A program made the translations under genes and the position numbers. Positions 11,307 to 29,746 of a DNA stretch of 64,000 bases are shown here, one piece after another (positions within the stretch are counted from its first letter, which is position 1; each line of letters begins with the position of its first letter). Source of the DNA: Patescibacteria group bacterium (GTDB taxonomy: Bacteria; Patescibacteriota; Patescibacteriia; 2-12-FULL-60-25); assembly GCA_041661725.1 (NCBI GenBank), contig JBAZTX010000003.1, forward strand, positions 218,794 through 282,793. The letters run 5' to 3'. Under the pieces are notes generated by a model. It made no database searches. It had not been told where the DNA came from and saw only the letters and a list, made by a program, of their open reading frames with translations.

Positions 11307-11648
11307 ATGAAAAAGTTTGTCGTATTATACATGGCGCCCATCGCCGAGCTGGACAAAATGATGCAAAACACAGACAAAGAAAAAATGCGTGAGATGGATG
11401 CGATTTGGTTAAAATGGATCGCTGACCACAAAGACAGTTTTGTGGATCAAGGCGCGCCGCTGGGTAAAAACAAACGCGTAACAAAAGAAGGAATTAACGA
11501 CATCAGGAACGAGGTAACGGGTTATGCCGTCGTCCAAGCCGAGTCGCACGAAGATGCCTGCAAAATTTTTGAGGATAATCCTATGTTTGAGATGCCGGGG
11601 GCGTATGTTGAGGTTCTGGCGTGGGTGGAGATGCCGACGACTAAGTAG
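11307..11648 (+). CDS. Hypothetical small protein (possible dimeric alpha/beta-barrel type)
   Basis: 113 aa from the first ATG (MKKFVVLYMAP...). The ORF-track start at 11238 is a non-ATG extension. I recognise no diagnostic motif. Confidence 0.55.
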   Translation: MKKFVVLYMAPIAELDKMMQNTDKEKMREMDAIWLKWIADHKDSFVDQGAPLGKNKRVTKEGINDIRNEVTGYAVVQAESHEDACKIFEDNPMFEMPGAYVEVLAWVEMPTTK

Positions 11649-11667
11649 TCGATTTGCTTTGGCAAAA

Positions 11668-11695
11668 TAAAAACGACGGTTTGTCCGTCGTTTTT
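11668..11695 (+). terminator. Hairpin terminator
   Basis: aaaacgacggtttgtccgtcgttttt. Confidence 0.75.
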
Positions 11696-11794
11696 ACATG
11701 GGATCACATTGTCGAGGTTGTCCGCACTGTTATAGCGAGTTTACCACTGTATTCATACATCTCTGTCTGGTCCAAGTTAATTTTTTTTAGACAT

Positions 11795-12112
11795 TTATTT
11801 CCACGTTCTTTTTTTATTGATTTCTTCTTTGTATCTGAATGATCGTTCAAGATCGATATTGTGCCGATTCGCAATTGAACACAGGAATATCAAGATATCA
11901 GCCAACTCCTCATCGATTGAACCAACGATTGAGTTTGGATCGGTACGCATTTTTTCGCTCTTTCTAATAGCTTTAAACAATTCACCGACTTCTTCTCCAA
12001 GCATTAATGACTTTTCTAGCACGGTTTGAGTTGTGAAACCTCTCTCTTTTTCTAATTCAACAACATATTGTTGAATGTTTTTTAGTGTTGGATCCTCTTT
12101 TAATTCTGGCAT
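11795..12112 (-). CDS. MazG-like all-alpha nucleotide pyrophosphohydrolase
   Basis: EEVGELFKAIRK...EELADILIFLCSIANRHNIDLERSFRYKEEINKKR is the MazG/YpjD-type metal-binding helix pair. First ATG used (MPELKED...). The region is AT-rich. Confidence 0.7.
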   Translation of the reverse strand: MPELKEDPTLKNIQQYVVELEKERGFTTQTVLEKSLMLGEEVGELFKAIRKSEKMRTDPNSIVGSIDEELADILIFLCSIANRHNIDLERSFRYKEEINKKRTWK

Positions 12113-12200
12113 ACTTTTTTCGTTACAGCTTATTTTAACAGAGGTGAAATAATTTAACAATAAAAAATGATGCAGACAGAGCGATTACTGCACCTTGCTT

Positions 12201-13112
12201 CTACGCTTTGTTCATCGATATACCGACGTACTTGTTAATGTGATTGCGCTTGTAAGGGTATCTTGCCCAGATGTCAGTCATGGATTCTGTTCTGAGATCT
12301 CCGAGATAAAGGACGCATTCCGGCTGGTCAAAGACGGGCCATGCATGGACTCGCTGATCGGGGTAGACGATGATAGCGTATCCTTCAGTGTTTTTCTCCC
12401 AGAAAGTAAACTTGATTCTAGGCTTCCATCCAAGTCTCTCTTTCAACTGCTTCAGTTCAACGAACTTAGCCATGATATCCGCTGAACTTGCGAAATCGTC
12501 GCCAATTAGGCTTTTTGCACGTCCTCGCAGGATAGGGATCACCATTTTGACCTTAACGATGTTCAAGATATCGGCTATTTGGATGACGTAGCTCAGATGA
12601 GGCAATGTCTTTTGGAGAATCACTGTAGACAATGACACTTCGATGTCTGCATCTCTCAGGGCAAGTAAGCCCTGAATGATGCCATCGAAATTGCCTCGAA
12701 CTTGGTCGTTAATCAGTCGTGGACCATCTAGCCCAGCGTTGACGTAGTGAACTTTTCCCTTGAGCTTTTTACAGACATCGGGAGTCATCAATATGCTGTT
12801 GGTTGGAAGTCCCAAGACTTGAAATGCTCCGTGGTACATTTCGATGACTTCGAAAATGTCCTTTCGAACGAGTGGTTCGCCGCCAGATAAATAAATTCTC
12901 GGAGTACCTGTCAGTTTTATTTTTAACGTTTCGAGATCTTCCTGGCTAGGTTCTTGATAGATTTCAGATTCACTACAGAATTCGCATGCAAGATTACATC
13001 GTCTGGTGACTTGAACGATCACGGAGAGAGGCCCGCTGACTTTTGCATAGTCAAGGCTACTGTTGTCTGCTGAGAATTCGTGATTCGCGAAATCGAAAAA
13101 GATTTTACTCAT
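12201..13112 (-). CDS. Radical SAM enzyme, 303 aa, no SPASM/twitch Cys cluster
   Basis: VTRRCNLACEFC (C-x3-C-x2-C) and SGGEPL. Its size and single-cluster layout resemble MoaA-core or viperin-size enzymes, but the family cannot be assigned by eye. It has an SD (aaaaggag). Confidence 0.8.
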   Translation of the reverse strand: MSKIFFDFANHEFSADNSSLDYAKVSGPLSVIVQVTRRCNLACEFCSESEIYQEPSQEDLETLKIKLTGTPRIYLSGGEPLVRKDIFEVIEMYHGAFQVLGLPTNSILMTPDVCKKLKGKVHYVNAGLDGPRLINDQVRGNFDGIIQGLLALRDADIEVSLSTVILQKTLPHLSYVIQIADILNIVKVKMVIPILRGRAKSLIGDDFASSADIMAKFVELKQLKERLGWKPRIKFTFWEKNTEGYAIIVYPDQRVHAWPVFDQPECVLYLGDLRTESMTDIWARYPYKRNHINKYVGISMNKA

Positions 13113-13172
13113 GGTTCCTACTCCTTTTCTTAACTTTCTCGTTGCCTCTTTGCGTTGTTAAGGGGCAGCATT

Positions 13173-13201
13173 ATTTGATCATAAATGATCATTTTGGTCA
13201 A
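13173..13201 (-). promoter_or_regulatory. Promoter with embedded perfect palindrome (candidate operator) for the radical SAM-MazG pair
   Basis: Minus strand reads TTGACC, 17 nt spacer, TCAAAT. The spacer and -10 box contain the inverted repeat tgatcat-aa-atgatca (13176-13191). Confidence 0.55.
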
Positions 13202-13320
13202 TACTTACACCTTGAATTCGTTTATAATCTGCCATGGAGTATACGATTTGCTTTTTGTTAGCACCCACCATAAACTCTCAACCAAAACAAAATCCGACCT
13301 TTTGCGAGATCGGATTTTGG

Positions 13321-13395
13321 TGGGGTGACCAGAGGGAGTTGAACCCTCGCCAGCGGGACCACAACCCGCTGTTCTACCGTTAAACTATGGCCACC
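13321..13395 (-). tRNA. tRNA-His (anticodon GTG), CCA encoded
   Basis: Reverse complement is GGTGGCCATAGTTTAACGGTAGAACAGCGGGTTGTGGTCCCGCTGGCGAGGGTTCAACTCCCTCTGGTCACCCCA. The acceptor stem includes a G-1:C73 pair, the anticodon loop is TTGTGGT and the T-arm is GGGTTCAACTCCC. Confidence 0.9.
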
Positions 13396-13508
13396 ATGCT
13401 CAATGAACAATGAACAATTAAAAATTTACAATTTAACTGCCGGTTGCTCACAAATAAAAGTACGCGGTGATATTTATACCGTATTTTGCGGTCTTTGGCA
13501 AGATTGGG

Positions 13509-23926: not shown

Positions 23927-24442
23927 CTAGAGACGGAACTCCGAGGTGACAATCAGGCCGGACGCTGTAGATGAGAGTATCACGCCATGACACTCTTCTA
24001 GTGGCGCGATGACAGTGCTTGTCAGGCCGTAGACCAGACACTCGATGAACGGCGAGTGCCCAACTCCGAGCAGGTGCACATTCAGGCCGAGGTGACCGAG
24101 TTCGTGTAGAAACTCTAGCGTCATGCGAGCCGCTTCCTCGCGAACCAGCTCATTTTCCGGAACAAGGTTCTGGTCATACTTGGCGAAATATGCTCGCCAA
24201 GCGCCCATGCGTTTTGTGTCGAGAGCGTCGAGTTCGTGGCACTGTCGAATGAGCGGAAAGTCGCTGGCGCCTTCAGCGAAGGCTTGCAGGGTCCCCGACG
24301 TGCGCGGCTGATGGGATATCGCAAAGTGCGTATACCCTTTGCCTCGCATCTGCTCGCGGCCGACCACGATCGCATGTGCGATGCCTTTCGGGGCGAGCTC
24401 GCCGTTGATGTGATGCGCGTGTCGACGCAGTTCGATGAGCAT
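23927..24442 (-). CDS. Histidine phosphatase (phosphoglycerate-mutase-like) superfamily protein, GC-richer
   Basis: MLIELRRHAHH (RH(G/A)-type catalytic motif) and a second catalytic His in LLGVGHSPFIE. First ATG with SD aaggagga used. Confidence 0.65.
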   Translation of the reverse strand: MLIELRRHAHHINGELAPKGIAHAIVVGREQMRGKGYTHFAISHQPRTSGTLQAFAEGASDFPLIRQCHELDALDTKRMGAWRAYFAKYDQNLVPENELVREEAARMTLEFLHELGHLGLNVHLLGVGHSPFIECLVYGLTSTVIAPLEECHGVILSSTASGLIVTSEFRL

Positions 24443-24508
24443 TGCGCTCCTCCTTGTGAAGTTTCGACGTCTTTTGCGAAGGGCTAATTCCCTGGGCATT
24501 GACTGAAG

Positions 24509-24537
24509 AACATACAGGAAAATGACTTACTAGTCAA
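24509..24537 (-). promoter_or_regulatory. Sigma70-type promoter for 23927-24442
   Basis: Minus strand reads TTGACT, 17 nt spacer, TATGTT. Confidence 0.55.
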
Positions 24538-24566
24538 GGGTCGTATTAGACACTTTGTAGCTTTGT

Positions 24567-25577
24567 ATGCAAAATGGCCTTAAGTCTATGCAGGTCGCTT
24601 CACACAAAAAAATCGTTGTCCTCGGCGGCGGAACGGGTACGTTTACCGTTCTTTCCGGACTCAAATATCATCCCGTCGACCTTTCAGCTGTCGTTTCCAT
24701 CGCCGATGACGGCGGCTCGACCGGGATTTTACGCGACGAACTCGGTGTTTTGCCGCCGGGCGACATTCGGCAGTGTCTGGTTGCTCTTGCAAACGGCGAT
24801 CAGGTTTTGCGCGATCTTTTTAATTACCGTTTTACGCAAGGCGGACTGGACGGTCACAACTTTGGAAATATATTCCTGTCTGCTCTTGAAAAAATCACCG
24901 GCGATCCGTTGGCCGCGGTGCGAGAAGCTAATCGAATTTTAAACGTCAAAGGCCGCGTTATTCCGGTTTCTTCGCGCGCCACGGATTTGTATGCAGAGTT
25001 GGATGATGCAACTGTGGTTAAGGGCGAACATGCGATAGACAAGCCGTCTTCAAATCGTGCGGCCATTCGACGCTGCTTTCTTTCTCCCGAGGTCCCCGCA
25101 AACCTCGAAGCGCTTGATGCGATTCGTGCGGCCGATATCATCGTGATGGGTCCGGGCGATTTGTATACGAGTTTGATTCCGGTTCTTCTCGTCAAAGGAA
25201 TTGCGCAAGCAATGGCGGAAAGCAAAGCCAAAAAAGTTTTGGTCATCAATTTGACTTCCAAGAACGGACAAACGCAGGGTTACAAGGCGAGTGATTTTTG
25301 TGAAGTCGTATCCAGACACATCTTGCCCGCATCGATCGACGTCGCCATTCTCAATTCTGCAAAACCATCGGATGAAGTGGCGCGGAGATACATTGAGGCA
25401 GGAGATCATGTTATTGAGGACGATTTGGATGTCGGCTCTATGCAGATTTGGCGCAGTGATTTACTGTCAGATGATATAGTGCCAAATGTTCCGGGGGATA
25501 GGCTTAAGCGCAGTCTTTTGCGCCATGATCCCGATAAATTAGCGGCTGCTATTCTTGCCGCGGCAGGAGTGGCATAA
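24567..25577 (+). CDS. YvcK / CofD-family (UPF0052, gluconeogenesis factor-like) protein
   Basis: KIVVLGGGTGTFTVLSGLK...SIADDGGSTGILRDELGVLPPGDIRQCLVAL...GPGDLYTSLIP. Confidence 0.85.
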   Translation: MQNGLKSMQVASHKKIVVLGGGTGTFTVLSGLKYHPVDLSAVVSIADDGGSTGILRDELGVLPPGDIRQCLVALANGDQVLRDLFNYRFTQGGLDGHNFGNIFLSALEKITGDPLAAVREANRILNVKGRVIPVSSRATDLYAELDDATVVKGEHAIDKPSSNRAAIRRCFLSPEVPANLEALDAIRAADIIVMGPGDLYTSLIPVLLVKGIAQAMAESKAKKVLVINLTSKNGQTQGYKASDFCEVVSRHILPASIDVAILNSAKPSDEVARRYIEAGDHVIEDDLDVGSMQIWRSDLLSDDIVPNVPGDRLKRSLLRHDPDKLAAAILAAAGVA

Positions 25578-25636
25578 TGACAATTAACAATGAATAATTA
25601 ACAATGAATAATTTCATTAAGAAACGACTAATAACT

Positions 25637-26944
25637 ATGAAATACGCCTACGCTATTGCTATAAGTCTCGCTTTGTTCGGAGCGGGATGCTTTTCGAATC
25701 GTCCCACGTCGCTCGTCCCACGTCCCACGTCGACGGAGCAGAATGCGACGACGACAGTGGATCAAAATCAGTCTGCACCCGGGACGGGAAGCTGGCTGCA
25801 ATACAGAAACTACAATTATGGTTTTGATTTCAAATATCCTGCGAATGCAGTCGAGACTTATAGAAGCGATTCGGCGACAGGGACTGTTTTTACTTTGGAT
25901 CTCGGTCCGACCGTTGCAAGCTCAACCGCGCTTTCTGTACCGGAAGATACGCTTGATGTTAAAATTATTTCTGACGAGATGAGTGCTGATCTTAAAAGCA
26001 GAATTAATATCGAAAACAATTGTTATAATGAGGACGGAGAGTCAGCGCGGGTAACGCCAGGAGTAATCTATAACGGACAACAGGTCTGCGTCGTCGAAAG
26101 CGCGGGCGCGGCTGCAGGGAATCGTTACAATCAATATTGGTATACTATTCCGCTCGGTAAAAAGAATCTGGTTTTTGCTTTCACGATTCACTCGGTCAAT
26201 TGTCAAAACTTCGATAAACCGGGTGCGTGTCTGGCGTTTGATGAAAGCCGCGATTCGCTGGTGAGCAAAATGATAATGTCTACGCTAAATACTTTTACAC
26301 CTAGTAAGAGCAAAGAGAATTTGAATTTGCGATTTGAGACAAAGTCGATTAAAGAAGAGGCTAAAGATCATTCGGTTGATGTGAAATATCCGGTCATGTT
26401 TGGCGGAGATGCTGCGGTGAGAGGTGTGATCAACGGCGCGATCAATACTTACATCAGCACAACGACGCAGACTTTTGCTAGATTGCTTAAGACGGAAGGT
26501 AAAGCGTCACCTGGACCTTTTGTGTTACAGGGCAATTATTCGATTTATAACGTCAGTTCGAATGTTGTCAGTATCGTTTTTAACGGCTACGAATACACGG
26601 GCGGTGCACATGGGATTTCGATTTTCGAGACTTTTGTTTTTGACACTACGACAGGCAACCGTTTGTCGTTTGATGACATCTTCAAATCCGACAGCGGTTA
26701 CCTAAAAATCGTTTCAGATTATGCAATCGCTGAACTTTCCAAGAAGCCGGATATGGATGTTGAGGGCTTAAAATCAGGCGCCGCACCGGATTTGAAAAAT
26801 TATCAATATTACTACTTGAATCAAGATGGCCTCGTTATCATCTTCCCGGAATATCAAGTTGCGCCGTACGCAGCGGGTCCACAGGTTGTGACCGTGCCTT
26901 ACGCCTCACTGAAAGACATAATGAAACTGGAAACTAGAAACTAG
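25637..26944 (+). CDS. Lipoprotein with DUF3298/DUF4163-type (RsiV/PdaC-like) C-terminal domains
   Basis: Lipobox LALFGAGC and YEYTGGAHGISIFETFVFDTTTGNRLSFDDIF...LVIIFPEYQVAPYAAGPQVVTVPY. The last codons and the stop lie inside a PE-1 half element. Confidence 0.75.
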   Translation: MKYAYAIAISLALFGAGCFSNRPTSLVPRPTSTEQNATTTVDQNQSAPGTGSWLQYRNYNYGFDFKYPANAVETYRSDSATGTVFTLDLGPTVASSTALSVPEDTLDVKIISDEMSADLKSRINIENNCYNEDGESARVTPGVIYNGQQVCVVESAGAAAGNRYNQYWYTIPLGKKNLVFAFTIHSVNCQNFDKPGACLAFDESRDSLVSKMIMSTLNTFTPSKSKENLNLRFETKSIKEEAKDHSVDVKYPVMFGGDAAVRGVINGAINTYISTTTQTFARLLKTEGKASPGPFVLQGNYSIYNVSSNVVSIVFNGYEYTGGAHGISIFETFVFDTTTGNRLSFDDIFKSDSGYLKIVSDYAIAELSKKPDMDVEGLKSGAAPDLKNYQYYYLNQDGLVIIFPEYQVAPYAAGPQVVTVPYASLKDIMKLETRN

Positions 26945-26955
26945 AAAGAGCAAAT

Positions 26956-27201
26956 ATGCAAAAAAGATCCTTTGTACCCAATTGGCTCGGGTTGATCAAG
27001 TATTTACGTGACCCGAAATCAGATTGGAAACCGAAGGCTACAATCGTCGTAGCAATCTTGTATTTAATCTGGCCGATAGATCTCTTGCCTGACATAGCGC
27101 CAATACTCGGTTGGCTGGATGATATCGGCATCACGTCGCTCGCCATTGCATATTTGCTGCATGCGTCAGGTCAGTACTCAAAACAAATAGAAAAAGAATA
27201 A
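26956..27201 (+). CDS. DUF1232 (YkvA-like) small membrane protein
   Basis: WPIDLLPDIAPILGWLDDIGI is the family signature. Confidence 0.75.
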   Translation: MQKRSFVPNWLGLIKYLRDPKSDWKPKATIVVAILYLIWPIDLLPDIAPILGWLDDIGITSLAIAYLLHASGQYSKQIEKE

Positions 27202-27204
27202 TTT

Positions 27205-28023
27205 ATGTTCAACTTTATATCCGCAGTCGTACTCGGTTTGGTGGAAGGCGTGACGGAATTTTTGCCGGTGTCATCAACGGGACATTTGATTTTAATCAAT
27301 CAATGGTTTTCTTTCGGCGAACCTTTTACAAAACTTTTTGATATCGTCATTCAATCCGGCGCGATTCTGGCGGTGATAGTTTTATTTTGGAAAGATGTCT
27401 GGCCACCCGCCCTCACCCCAAACCCCTCTCCCACAAGAGCAGGAGAGGGGCTTTCGAAAGAGAGTTGGTTAAGAAACTGGAAGACGGTTTTGATTGCATT
27501 CGTGCCAACTGCGATCATTGGACTGTTATTCGGCAAGATCGCAGAGCAATATCTTTTCACTCCGACGGTTGTCGCCTTGGCGTTGATTTTTTACGGGATT
27601 GTTTTTTTGATTTTGGAAAAACACGACTCGCGAAACGAAAAGTCAGTTGTGACTTTTGGCGATGCTGCAATTATCGGTCTGATCCAAGCTCTCGCACTTG
27701 TGCCTGGCACATCAAGGTCCGGTGCGACGATTATTGGTATGCTTATTTTGGGCTATACGCGCCCGGTTGCCGCTAAGTTTTCTTTCTTGCTCGCGATTCC
27801 GACTTTAATCGCTGCCGGCGGATACTCGCTTTTAAAATACGATGCTTCGATTTCGAGTTCGGAGTGGCTGTTACTGTTTATCGGTTTTATTGTATCTTTC
27901 GCCTCGGCTTTTTTGGTAGTCAAATGGTTTATGGCGTACATCAGCCGCAAAAGCTTCGTTCCTTTTGCCTGGTATCGCCTGATTTTGGGCTTAGTTGTCA
28001 TATTATTCGTCATTTGGGGTTGA
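27205..28023 (+). CDS. uppP: Undecaprenyl-diphosphate phosphatase
   Basis: VEGVTEFLPVSSTGHL and PGTSRSGATI motifs with 8 hydrophobic segments. It carries an in-frame hairpin-repeat insertion (see 27405-27457). Confidence 0.9.
   Translation: MFNFISAVVLGLVEGVTEFLPVSSTGHLILINQWFSFGEPFTKLFDIVIQSGAILAVIVLFWKDVWPPALTPNPSPTRAGEGLSKESWLRNWKTVLIAFVPTAIIGLLFGKIAEQYLFTPTVVALALIFYGIVFLILEKHDSRNEKSVVTFGDAAIIGLIQALALVPGTSRSGATIIGMLILGYTRPVAAKFSFLLAIPTLIAAGGYSLLKYDASISSSEWLLLFIGFIVSFASAFLVVKWFMAYISRKSFVPFAWYRLILGLVVILFVIWG
27405..27457. repeat. GC-rich hairpin element inserted in frame in uppP
   Basis: cccctctcc-cacaagagca-ggagagggg (27423-27450) encodes ...LTPNPSPTRAGEGLS... in a loop region. Related ccccc..ggggg hairpins occur at 43930-43985, 44826-44843 and 58907-58930. 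Confidence 0.75.
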
Positions 28024-28096
28024 CAATGTTTATAAATTAGTACAATCTAAGATATTCCTCGGAATGGTTCCGAGGTTGCACCTTGAGAGGATCATC

Positions 28097-29746
28097 ATGA
28101 AGATGAGAATTGTGGCGCTGCTCATTGCAGCCGTTGTTCTCTGTTTCGGTACGCGGGCTATGGCCCAAGCGCCGTCGCAGGGTCCGACGTCGGCATACCC
28201 GGGCGGCCGCTACACGCGGTACCCGGATCTCAATAGTGCAGTTTGCGACGACAAAATCGCCGCAAACTGTGTCATCACAGTTGACGGGACTGACTATGTC
28301 CCGGGCCTCGTGCACGGCCGCACGCGGCGCGAGACAGCGCTCGCCAACTGCAAGTTGGCGTTCACCCTCCGCCTGCCGGTTCTTGCGCGTTCTGCGCGGG
28401 CACCTCAGCAGTTGGGGGACTTGTTTACGTCAACCGGGGCGCCTCGTGCCTCCGTGTCGTTGAACGCAGCGTGTTTGAAAGCTCTGGGCCGTCGTGATTT
28501 TGATGCCCAGATGCGTGCCCGCGATGCAGCATTCGAAGCTCGTCGTCGCGCGGCAGCTGCCGCTGCAGCATCCTCAGCGACTGTCGTCGCGCGAGCGCCT
28601 GCGCCGTCCGCGGCTCCGGCGCCAACGTACGTCATGACTCCGGAAGAGGCAGCGCGTCTCAAGCAGCTCGAAGCTGCTCTGGAAGCAGAGAGCGCGAGCA
28701 CTCGTGCTCGCGCGCCCAGCAAGCCGGCCGCAAGGCCGACTGTGACCGTAGCGCGAGTTCGTCCCGCAACTGCGCCAAGCGATTGGTGCGGCCTGGGCGA
28801 CAACCTGCAGCTCGTATCCGTCAACGACACCGACGTTGCACGCATCAGGGTTCTCCCCGGTGCGCAGTTCGCGAGCGTTCAGCGCTCGTGCATCGCCAAG
28901 AAGTTCAATGTAGAGTGGGGGATGGCTTACGCCGACTCGCACAACAGCTACAAGAATTTCATCGGAGCCTGTTTCATGCCCGACCGCAAGGTCGAGCTCG
29001 ATACTGACCGCATGTCGGTCAAGTCGTGGGACAAGACCAAGCTCGACGGTCCTGTCGACGTCACATTCATGAAGGACTGCGAGGCCAAGGGCGGCGAGTT
29101 TCGATTCGCTCTCCAGGCCGGACAGATCATCACTCTCTCGGCAAAGAACTCAGAAAGCGAGAGTCAGCCGACTCCGCCGACGGTAAGCGCGCCCAACGAG
29201 GCGCCCGACGAGACTCCGCCTCTCGAGGCAGAGTCCAACCCCGCACCTTCAACGGATCCGACAGCCGTCGCCCTGGCGACGCCGCCGGTGCCAGAATCGT
29301 CTGCGGGAAGTCCCGCGCCTGTTGCATCGCTCGAGGGGGCCGTTGCCTCCTCACCGACTGCGTCAGCTTCGAATGTGTTGCCTCCCGTTAACGTCGCGGC
29401 AACGCGTCCCGCGCCTAGCGGGGACTTCCAACGGGCCGTGCAACAACATGAAGCCGCTCAGCGGCTCATGAAGTGGCCGGCATACATAGCGCTGTTGCTC
29501 GCAGCAGCGCTAATGATCGTTTGGATTGTGGTACGGAGGCGGAGGATTGAACTCCGCGACCCGTACGTCCCAATACGTATGCGGACAGAAGAGGGGGTTC
29601 CCTCAAGAATAACGATAGTACCCGCGCCTGAGCCTCCGCCTCTCGAGGCAGTGAGCATCTCGTTGGAGACCAGCGAGGAACTGAGCGCTTCTGACCCGTT
29701 CCCTTCGATACGTCCGCCGCAGAATGCGCCCGGCGGAATCAGTTGA
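28097..29746 (+). CDS. GC-rich secreted, C-terminally membrane-anchored Ala/Pro-rich protein, hypothetical
   Basis: Signal peptide [25 protein letters not shown], Cys-containing domains, low-complexity A/P/R tracts and a C-terminal TM + stop-transfer (ALLLAAALMIVWIVVRRRR). G/C-ending codons dominate. SD gagagg, with TTGACA at 28020 and TACAAT at 28041. Confidence 0.7.
   Translation: MKMRIVALLIAAVVLCFGTRAMAQAPSQGPTSAYPGGRYTRYPDLNSAVCDDKIAANCVITVDGTDYVPGLVHGRTRRETALANCKLAFTLRLPVLARSARAPQQLGDLFTSTGAPRASVSLNAACLKALGRRDFDAQMRARDAAFEARRRAAAAAAASSATVVARAPAPSAAPAPTYVMTPEEAARLKQLEAALEAESASTRARAPSKPAARPTVTVARVRPATAPSDWCGLGDNLQLVSVNDTDVARIRVLPGAQFASVQRSCIAKKFNVEWGMAYADSHNSYKNFIGACFMPDRKVELDTDRMSVKSWDKTKLDGPVDVTFMKDCEAKGGEFRFALQAGQIITLSAKNSESESQPTPPTVSAPNEAPDETPPLEAESNPAPSTDPTAVALATPPVPESSAGSPAPVASLEGAVASSPTASASNVLPPVNVAATRPAPSGDFQRAVQQHEAAQRLMKWPAYIALLLAAALMIVWIVVRRRRIELRDPYVPIRMRTEEGVPSRITIVPAPEPPPLEAVSISLETSEELSASDPFPSIRPPQNAPGGIS

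Follow-up and report, generated by a model that had tools for sequence, protein, structure and literature searches.

The islet and its two genes

The DNA considered here is a stretch of 64,000 nucleotides, the whole of which is called the window (GenBank assembly GCA_041661725.1, contig JBAZTX010000003.1, positions 218,794 to 282,793 of the forward strand), from a Patescibacteria-type organism whose 1.37 Mb assembly consists of 13 contigs and is 99.96% complete. Within it, a short islet next to the gene for tRNA-His carries two genes on the minus strand, one for a radical S-adenosylmethionine (SAM) enzyme and one for a small MazG-type nucleoside triphosphate (NTP) pyrophosphohydrolase. Both genes had been proposed, with the same sizes, in an earlier reading of this DNA (the original prediction), and both are confirmed. 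The islet is a clean insertion, and its genes are related to those of a larger operon that is found on mobile DNA. The features that define it, in coordinates of the window, are as follows.

11668..11696, no strand: terminator hairpin, ancestral and bidirectional, the left border of the insert; identical in a genome of the same genus (G002)
11697..13320, no strand: the insert, 1,624 bp long, from that terminator to the CCA end of tRNA-His
11795..12112, minus strand: MazG-type all-alpha NTP pyrophosphohydrolase of 105 amino acids, EExxE...EExxD ligands intact (Pfam PF03819, 32.7 bits against a cut-off of 22)
12201..13112, minus strand: radical SAM enzyme of 303 amino acids with one CxxxCxxC cluster motif (CNLACEFC) and SGGEPL (Pfam PF04055)
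13288..13319, minus strand: strong hairpin with U-run, brought by the insert (-19.6 kcal/mol, z = -3.8)
13321..13394, minus strand: tRNA-His(GTG) with encoded CCA, an insertion landmark outside the insert (ARAGORN; Rfam, 63.9 bits; reading of the sequence)

Insertion beside tRNA-His

The history of the locus can be read most directly in G002, where every flanking gene is kept in the same order and the proteins are 83-96% identical to those of the window. The shared order runs from a polysaccharide synthase through TrpR-like and AHSA1-like genes to tRNA-His, and on to an open reading frame (ORF) of 136 amino acids, a glyoxalase and an ABC transporter. In G002 only 2 nucleotides separate the CCA end of tRNA-His from the hairpin taaaaacgacgg...ccgtcgttttta; in the window the same hairpin ends at 11696 and is separated from tRNA-His by 1,624 bp. 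Relative to this empty site, positions 11697-13320 of the window are a clean insertion. The insertion point lies just past the CCA end, outside tRNA-His itself, and the hairpin that came with the insert now serves as the terminator of tRNA-His.

No orthologue of the radical SAM gene was found in the 40 relatives searched, in which the best match was one of 27% identity to other radical SAM genes. A second metagenome contig from the same population (L138) carries the identical insert with the same junctions, with 7 differences in 1,760 nucleotides. The horizontal acquisition at tRNA-His that had originally been suggested, partly from base composition, is thus upheld by the syntenic but empty site in G002, by the lack of an orthologue in all 40 relatives and by the second contig; the insertion is demonstrated because the G002 site is empty, not because of composition. 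The islet does have a low G+C content (41.2%, at the 4th percentile of genome segments of its size, against a genome value of 47.8%), which is carried by the MazG gene (35%) and the non-coding ends. The description of the islet as AT-rich therefore holds for these parts and for the whole, but not for the radical SAM gene, which is compositionally ordinary (45%, GC3 0.50).

No integrase is present among the genes of the 1.6 kb insert, and no copy of the tRNA end at its far border stands out from chance: the best score, 9, equals the 95th percentile of shuffled sequence. An integrase-type, tRNA-linked island with an att repeat was ruled out on these two grounds. A direct repeat matching at 15 of 17 positions (AGTAGTCGATTTGCTTT at 11644-11660 and AGTATACGATTTGCTTT at 13238-13254) has its first copy a little beyond the left border of the insert and its second within the end near the tRNA. 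With a score of 13, where shuffled sequence gives a 95th percentile of 12 and a maximum of 17, this repeat is marginal; it has no clear role and would not account for the state of G002. The glyoxalase gene beside the islet, intact in the window (120 amino acids), is called in the second contig as two fragments of 45 and 50 amino acids (L138:6943-7305), which may reflect either a mistake in assembly or a gene that is truly broken in that strain.

A separate family of radical SAM enzymes

The only Pfam match of the radical SAM protein is to the superfamily domain PF04055. In an alignment of 32 family members (A1), the only conserved cysteines are C39, C43 and C46. The C-terminal half has its own set of invariant residues (W238, G244, P251, W258, P259, G271, W282, K294 and Y295), and five invariant basic residues (R72, R83, R139, K189 and K294) would be in keeping with an anionic substrate.

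Profile searches placed the protein outside every curated family. NCBIfam yielded 61 matches, all far below their cut-offs, the best being AhbD with 77.9 bits against a cut-off of 500; the MoaA model TIGR02666 scored 45.7 bits against 284. The PADLOC models for pVips gave 45.8 and 32.6 bits, confined to residues 31-136 and 33-168, that is, to the generic N-terminal core. Viperins in the PDB likewise matched the family profile with 31-37 bits over the N-terminal half only, and the C-terminal half has no sequence similarity to viperins. The family profile ranks SkfB (60 bits), PqqE (47 bits), Tes and MoaA (42 bits) above the viperins. Structural comparison is more even-handed. With an AlphaFold2 model of high confidence (pLDDT 94) as query, Foldseek matched mouse, fungal and Nematostella viperins over the full length (template modelling, TM, scores of about 0.70 by query and 0.73-0.75 by target), and SkfB matched about as well (0.71 by query, E = 7e-16). 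A fold search of BFVD returned generic radical SAM matches only.

From these results, the protein is a separate family in the MoaA/PqqE/SkfB/viperin part of the superfamily. The single cluster, the absence of a SPASM domain and the size close to that of viperins and the MoaA core had all been noted in the original prediction and are borne out by the cysteine pattern of the alignment, the structural model and Foldseek; membership among the viperins, MoaA or QueE, which it had left as possibilities, found no support in the NCBIfam, PADLOC and family-profile searches. A housekeeping cofactor maturase (MoaA, AhbD/NirJ, PqqE or QueE) was ruled out by scores far below the curated cut-offs and by the absence of the gene from the 40 relatives. 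SkfB, PqqE and MoaA are the best profile and fold matches and have the motifs Q-V-T-R-R-C-N-x-x-C-x-F-C and SGGEPLLR in common with the new family, which differs from them in having no SPASM/twitch domain or second cluster, no precursor peptide or RRE domain, and nucleotide enzymes as gene partners. A maturase of ribosomally synthesised and post-translationally modified peptides was also ruled out, there being no SPASM/twitch or RRE domain and no peptide context.

A conserved operon of nucleotide enzymes

The family is small, with 114 representatives among 1.84 billion at E <= 1e-30. Homologues 40-66% identical to the window protein occur in Patescibacteria, Cyanobacteriota/Sericytochromatia, Bdellovibrionota, Chloroflexota, Clostridia and one metagenome-assembled genome (MAG) of an archaeon (Thermoplasmatota). 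Actinomycetota are the chief home of these homologues, and 4 of 151 Streptomyces species have the family. Gene context was analysed at 80 loci by calling ORFs and searching them with hidden Markov models built from seeds; 67 of these loci had enough downstream DNA to be scored.

Three kinds of partner recur. An orphan protein of 250-290 amino acids that resembles DEDD exonucleases (here called c2) is encoded, in one or two copies, directly after the radical SAM gene in 63 of the 67 loci. A Tmk-like P-loop kinase of about 200 amino acids is found in 56, and an NTP pyrophosphohydrolase, either NUDIX or MazG, also in 56. No sequence match to c2 was found in Pfam, NCBIfam or the PDB; its predicted structure (pLDDT 93) has the fold of DnaQ, RNase T, TREX and the exonuclease domain of B-family polymerases, with an invariant D-x-E and a later D. 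The kinase matches AAA_28, weakly the dTMP kinase models, and phage thymidylate kinase PHROGs, and the NUDIX partner matches at 62-64 bits. The pyrophosphohydrolase slot is filled by NUDIX in Actinomycetota, Chloroflexota (Dictyobacter) and Clostridia, and by MazG in Patescibacteria, Cyanobacteriota, Bdellovibrionota and one actinobacterial clade (three loci). The partners of the cassette are thus conserved and are all enzymes of nucleotides or nucleic acids, and MazG and NUDIX replace one another. The occupation of one slot by two unrelated pyrophosphohydrolase folds points to the conversion of a (deoxy)nucleoside triphosphate, (d)NTP, to the monophosphate, (d)NMP, and pyrophosphate, PPi, as an integral step. 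Full-text literature searches found no description of an operon of radical SAM, c2, kinase and NUDIX or MazG genes.

Even closer association is seen in gene fusions. A MAG contig (L025:5662-6912, JAJYBC010000004.1) encodes a protein of 416 amino acids with MazG at its N terminus and the radical SAM domain at its C terminus, followed by an exonuclease-like gene, and a second fusion of this kind (P0242, 414 amino acids) is 71% identical to it. The covalent linkage argues that the two proteins carry out consecutive steps of one pathway. Along with the exchange of NUDIX and MazG and the frequency of the pairing across loci, these fusions substantiate the pairing of radical SAM enzyme and pyrophosphohydrolase that the original prediction had drawn from the window only. 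Further architectures were noted: an AP_endonuc_2 domain (a xylose-isomerase-like TIM barrel) is fused to a true member of the radical SAM family, and a PfkB sugar/nucleoside kinase is fused to a more distant relative (P0343 and P0396).

The MazG protein of the window belongs to a very conserved subfamily of 105 amino acids, with homologues 68-79% identical. Its start was set by these homologues at the ATG at 12112 (MPELKEDPTLK...); the longest ORF begins at a TTG. The closest solved structures are the integron cassette protein iMazG (2q73/2q5z, 48 bits) and dCTP pyrophosphatase 1 (DCTPP1, 27 bits), and the motifs GEEVGEL and DEELADIL are conserved in the alignment to 2q73. The window protein resembles both in being small and all-alpha with the same EExxE...EExxD ligands, and iMazG is likewise carried on a mobile cassette; a radical SAM partner is not described for either. 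As its subfamily is also found on its own in ordinary chromosomal settings, this MazG looks like a recruited house-cleaning enzyme.

Two other variants of the locus deserve mention. A Bdellovibrionales MAG has a tandem double-MazG protein of 190 amino acids in the MazG slot (L022:2489-3061). A Bacilli MAG (L039) and a Nealsonbacteria MAG (L042) represent a very long-branched sub-lineage of the radical SAM family, in which the gene is preceded by two genes for proteins of about 330-360 amino acids, one or both of them radical SAM-like, with the hairpin ATGGACACCTTCTTGTCCAT just upstream in both; these two contigs end too early for partner genes to be visible.

The two-gene form

The window protein is 56-66% identical to family members that sit in full operons (clade support 100/99), and its nearest relatives (63-66% identical) are found in the arrangements radical SAM-c2-kinase or radical SAM-c2-MazG. 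A radical SAM gene followed directly by MazG, as in the window, also occurs in MAGs of Uhrbacteria (L021), Buchananbacteria (L023) and Bdellovibrionales (L024). These two-gene forms fall in two well-supported clades of the tree among c2-bearing members, and this nesting indicates that c2 was lost at least three times. A c2 profile search found nothing in the 99.96%-complete genome of the host, and the kinase and exonuclease-like genes usual in the operon are absent from both the islet and the whole host genome. The window cassette is probably a reduced form of the larger operon, in which the radical SAM enzyme and the pyrophosphohydrolase make up a viable minimal unit.

Carriage by phages and other mobile DNA

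The full five-gene operon is present at 24383-28101 of Streptomyces phage Gilgamesh (MN234216.1; loci L139/L140), a 129 kb phage with two tyrosine integrases and ParA/ParB. Its gp39 is the radical SAM protein (39% identical, E = 2e-69), gp40 and gp41 are two copies of c2, gp42 is annotated as a thymidylate kinase and gp43 as MutT-like. The operon lies within an accessory stretch of about 27 kb, between the terminase (gp1) and the portal (gp46), which also holds the two tyrosine integrases and an FtsK-like translocase. Prophages of the Gilgamesh type, with their genes arranged in the same way, were found at several Streptomyces chromosomal loci and in the four long IMG/VR matches that could be judged. 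Among 50,697 phage genomes, neither the radical SAM gene nor c2 was found in any other record, and the radical SAM gene had no match in the PLSDB plasmids. At other loci the neighbours include a resolvase, TraG/TrwB, ParE/Phd, RadC, a DNA methylase, a Panacea-domain antitoxin and nucleoside-salvage genes. The operon is carried, then, by a lineage of temperate Streptomyces phages as well as by other mobile DNA.

About 75 kb from the operon, Gilgamesh also encodes a queuine tRNA-ribosyltransferase (gp114, DpdA-like) and a PAPS-reductase-like protein (gp116), which by sequence hint at a separate 7-deazaguanine DNA modification in this phage.

Transcription signals in the islet

Three further features bear on the expression of the two genes.

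13173..13201, minus strand: predicted promoter-like site, read from the sequence, with TTGACC at 13196-13201, a 17-nucleotide spacer, TCAAAT at 13173-13178 and a TGn extended -10
13176..13191, no strand: perfect 7-2-7 palindrome TGATCATAAATGATCA (TGATCAT-NN-ATGATCA), overlapping the spacer and the -10
12132..12194, minus strand: spacer between the radical SAM and MazG genes, with a 7 bp hairpin and U-run at 12160-12194 (fold not significant, z = -0.7) and a promoter-like TTGTTA-17-TAAAAT at 12132-12160

The promoter-like site and the perfect palindrome are both present as first described, and the leader of the radical SAM gene also holds a good AAGGAG ribosome-binding site. A stricter consensus scan did not list the site, and promoter-like sites are no commoner than in shuffles. 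No known RNA, riboswitch or other, was found in the leader besides the tRNA. The palindrome occurs once in the 1.37 Mb genome, where about 0.04-0.08 such perfect palindromes per 100 nucleotides are expected by chance, and it is not conserved upstream of radical SAM genes in other genomes. It may be an operator; the idea that it is a shared one was rejected on these two counts, and the operator of the original prediction has no regulon behind it.

The promoter region of the Buchananbacteria locus (L023), some 150-190 nucleotides upstream of its radical SAM gene, shares the string TTGAC[CA]AAAA.G.T.ATTTATGAT(C)AAAT with the window, despite only 43% identity between the two radical SAM proteins, and carries at the corresponding place a 6-1-6 palindrome of its own (ATTTAT-G-ATAAAT). 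In DNA so rich in A and T the likeness may be accidental, or it may reflect a conserved control element.

The two genes are co-directional and 88 nucleotides apart. That they stand under one promoter, as had been proposed, is less clear than their common strand: a single transcript is not certain because the hairpin with U-run and the second promoter-like site lie between them, and MazG may be partly transcribed from that site.

What the cassette may do

The reading that we favour, with moderate confidence, takes the islet, which was gained by horizontal transfer, to be the smallest version of a mobile operon whose enzymes make or process a modified (deoxy)nucleotide, likely for conflict among mobile elements, phages and hosts. 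A free (deoxy)nucleotide is proposed as the substrate of the radical SAM enzyme because every conserved partner acts on nucleotides or on nucleic-acid ends, and on the same ground the modified-nucleotide pathway of the original prediction stands as the best account of the gene pair. A role in conflict is favoured because the family is rare, mobile and phage-carried.

In the proposed mechanism, the radical SAM enzyme would apply 5'-deoxyadenosyl radical chemistry to the free (deoxy)nucleotide. MazG would catalyse the neighbouring step, from (d)NTP to (d)NMP and PPi, and would thereby either provide a monophosphate substrate or trim a triphosphate product; the net output of the cassette would be a modified nucleoside monophosphate. 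Where the operon is complete, the kinase would re-phosphorylate this product, and the exonuclease-like protein would handle 3' ends or supply nucleoside monophosphates. One may guess, by analogy, that the substrate is a pyrimidine deoxynucleotide, given the likeness of MazG to dCTP-type enzymes and of the kinase to Tmk. A more specific proposal, which we advance only tentatively, is that the family carries out a previously unknown radical transformation yielding a new natural nucleotide analogue used in phage-host or element-host conflict, with the radical SAM enzyme and the pyrophosphohydrolase as the minimal working unit.

Several results weigh against this interpretation. The radical SAM fold is equally near the peptide maturase SkfB and viperin. 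The MazG subfamily is not specific to the cassette and also occurs as a stand-alone, ordinary chromosomal gene (about 70% identical, in Bacteroidales and others). Defence genes are not clearly enriched beside the 80 loci, whose nearest flanking genes match 116 different Pfam families and only scattered PADLOC models. Finally, the two-gene form, which does without genes present at 63 of 67 and 56 of 67 loci, might be a decaying remnant.

The product could be put to three uses, namely as an antiviral or otherwise toxic analogue, as a nucleotide destined for DNA, or in sanitation of the nucleotide pool; a role in conflict is likely. The first of these can be cast in a strictly viperin-like form, in which the radical SAM enzyme makes a chain-terminating NTP analogue that acts against phage polymerases, MazG or NUDIX destroys the excess, and the exonuclease-like protein clears host 3' ends. 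Viperin converts CTP, UTP or GTP to the 3'-deoxy-3',4'-didehydro analogue (ddhNTP); vertebrate viperin pairs with CMPK2, and pVips often adjoin nucleotide kinases. The family described here resembles viperins and pVips in several respects: it consists of enzymes of about 300 amino acids with a single cluster and no auxiliary cluster, its TM scores over the full length are 0.70-0.75 (about as high as that to SkfB), it is associated with a nucleotide kinase, and its distribution is mobile and patchy. The location of the Gilgamesh operon in the accessory stretch of a temperate phage, between terminase and portal, and the possible separate promoter of MazG, which would suit an immunity gene, also accord with such a defence. 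The sequence likeness to pVips, on the other hand, is restricted to the generic core at residues 31-136 (45.8 bits), and the C-terminal half, in which viperin similarity is lacking, has motifs particular to this family (EGY..YP.G..AWPV and LG.L...IW..YPYK.NH..KY). Moreover, the DEDD-like and NUDIX/MazG partners are not part of pVip systems, the immediate neighbours show no enrichment of the kind seen in defence islands, and the covalent fusion of MazG to the radical SAM enzyme is less natural for a maker and a destroyer of the same compound. We regard this version as unlikely. The toxic analogue with self-protection that had originally been put forward stays as one option among several, its antidote part fitting the fusions less well than consecutive steps of a pathway would.

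The second use, pre-replicative modification of a DNA base or sugar, has known precedents. Phage T4 employs the dCTPase gp56, the dCMP hydroxymethylase gp42 and the dNMP kinase gp1, phage S-2L employs MazZ and PurZ, and SPO1 follows the same logic. By this route, the pyrophosphohydrolase would yield a deoxynucleoside monophosphate, the radical SAM enzyme would modify it, the kinase would re-phosphorylate it, and the modified dNTP would enter the DNA of the element or host. The trio of a pyrophosphohydrolase (MazG-type in S-2L), a modifying enzyme and a dedicated Tmk-like kinase mirrors these phage pathways, the operon is present in a phage, and the MazG protein resembles dCTP-type enzymes. The modifying enzyme is here a radical SAM protein, and the differences from the T4 and S-2L systems extend to the setting: the carriers are mostly cell chromosomes, only 1 of 50,697 phage records has the operon, and in Gilgamesh it lies away from the replication genes, with no polymerase annotated. 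The family has no evident dedicated polymerase or exclusion of canonical dNTPs, and the window's form lacks the kinase. DNA modification accordingly appears rather improbable.

Least probable is the third use, nucleotide-pool sanitation or repair, in which the radical SAM enzyme would reverse or process a damaged nucleotide and NUDIX (MutT-like), MazG, a 3'-5' exonuclease and a salvage kinase would clear the products: all of the partners are of classic house-cleaning or salvage types, the MazG subfamily has housekeeping-looking stand-alone members and a fusion to AP_endonuc_2 exists, but the family has a rare, patchy and mobile distribution rather than a core one, near relatives of the same lifestyle lack it, and no radical SAM enzyme is known to repair free nucleotides.

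Significance

The cassette is widespread yet unstudied, and the host of the window is a tiny uncultured bacterium. The two-gene form, together with the empty site in the sister genome, constitutes the smallest natural test object for the proposed pathway, and the complete operon is accessible to culture and to genetics through phage Gilgamesh on Streptomyces lividans. One possible product is a new natural nucleotide analogue, which would be interesting for antiviral use or for probing polymerases; a new DNA modification is the alternative. If the interpretation favoured here is true, the family would be a second independent radical SAM lineage, beside the viperins, that remodels free nucleotides, a lineage with its own fixed helper enzymes, carried by phages and small islands through at least six phyla.

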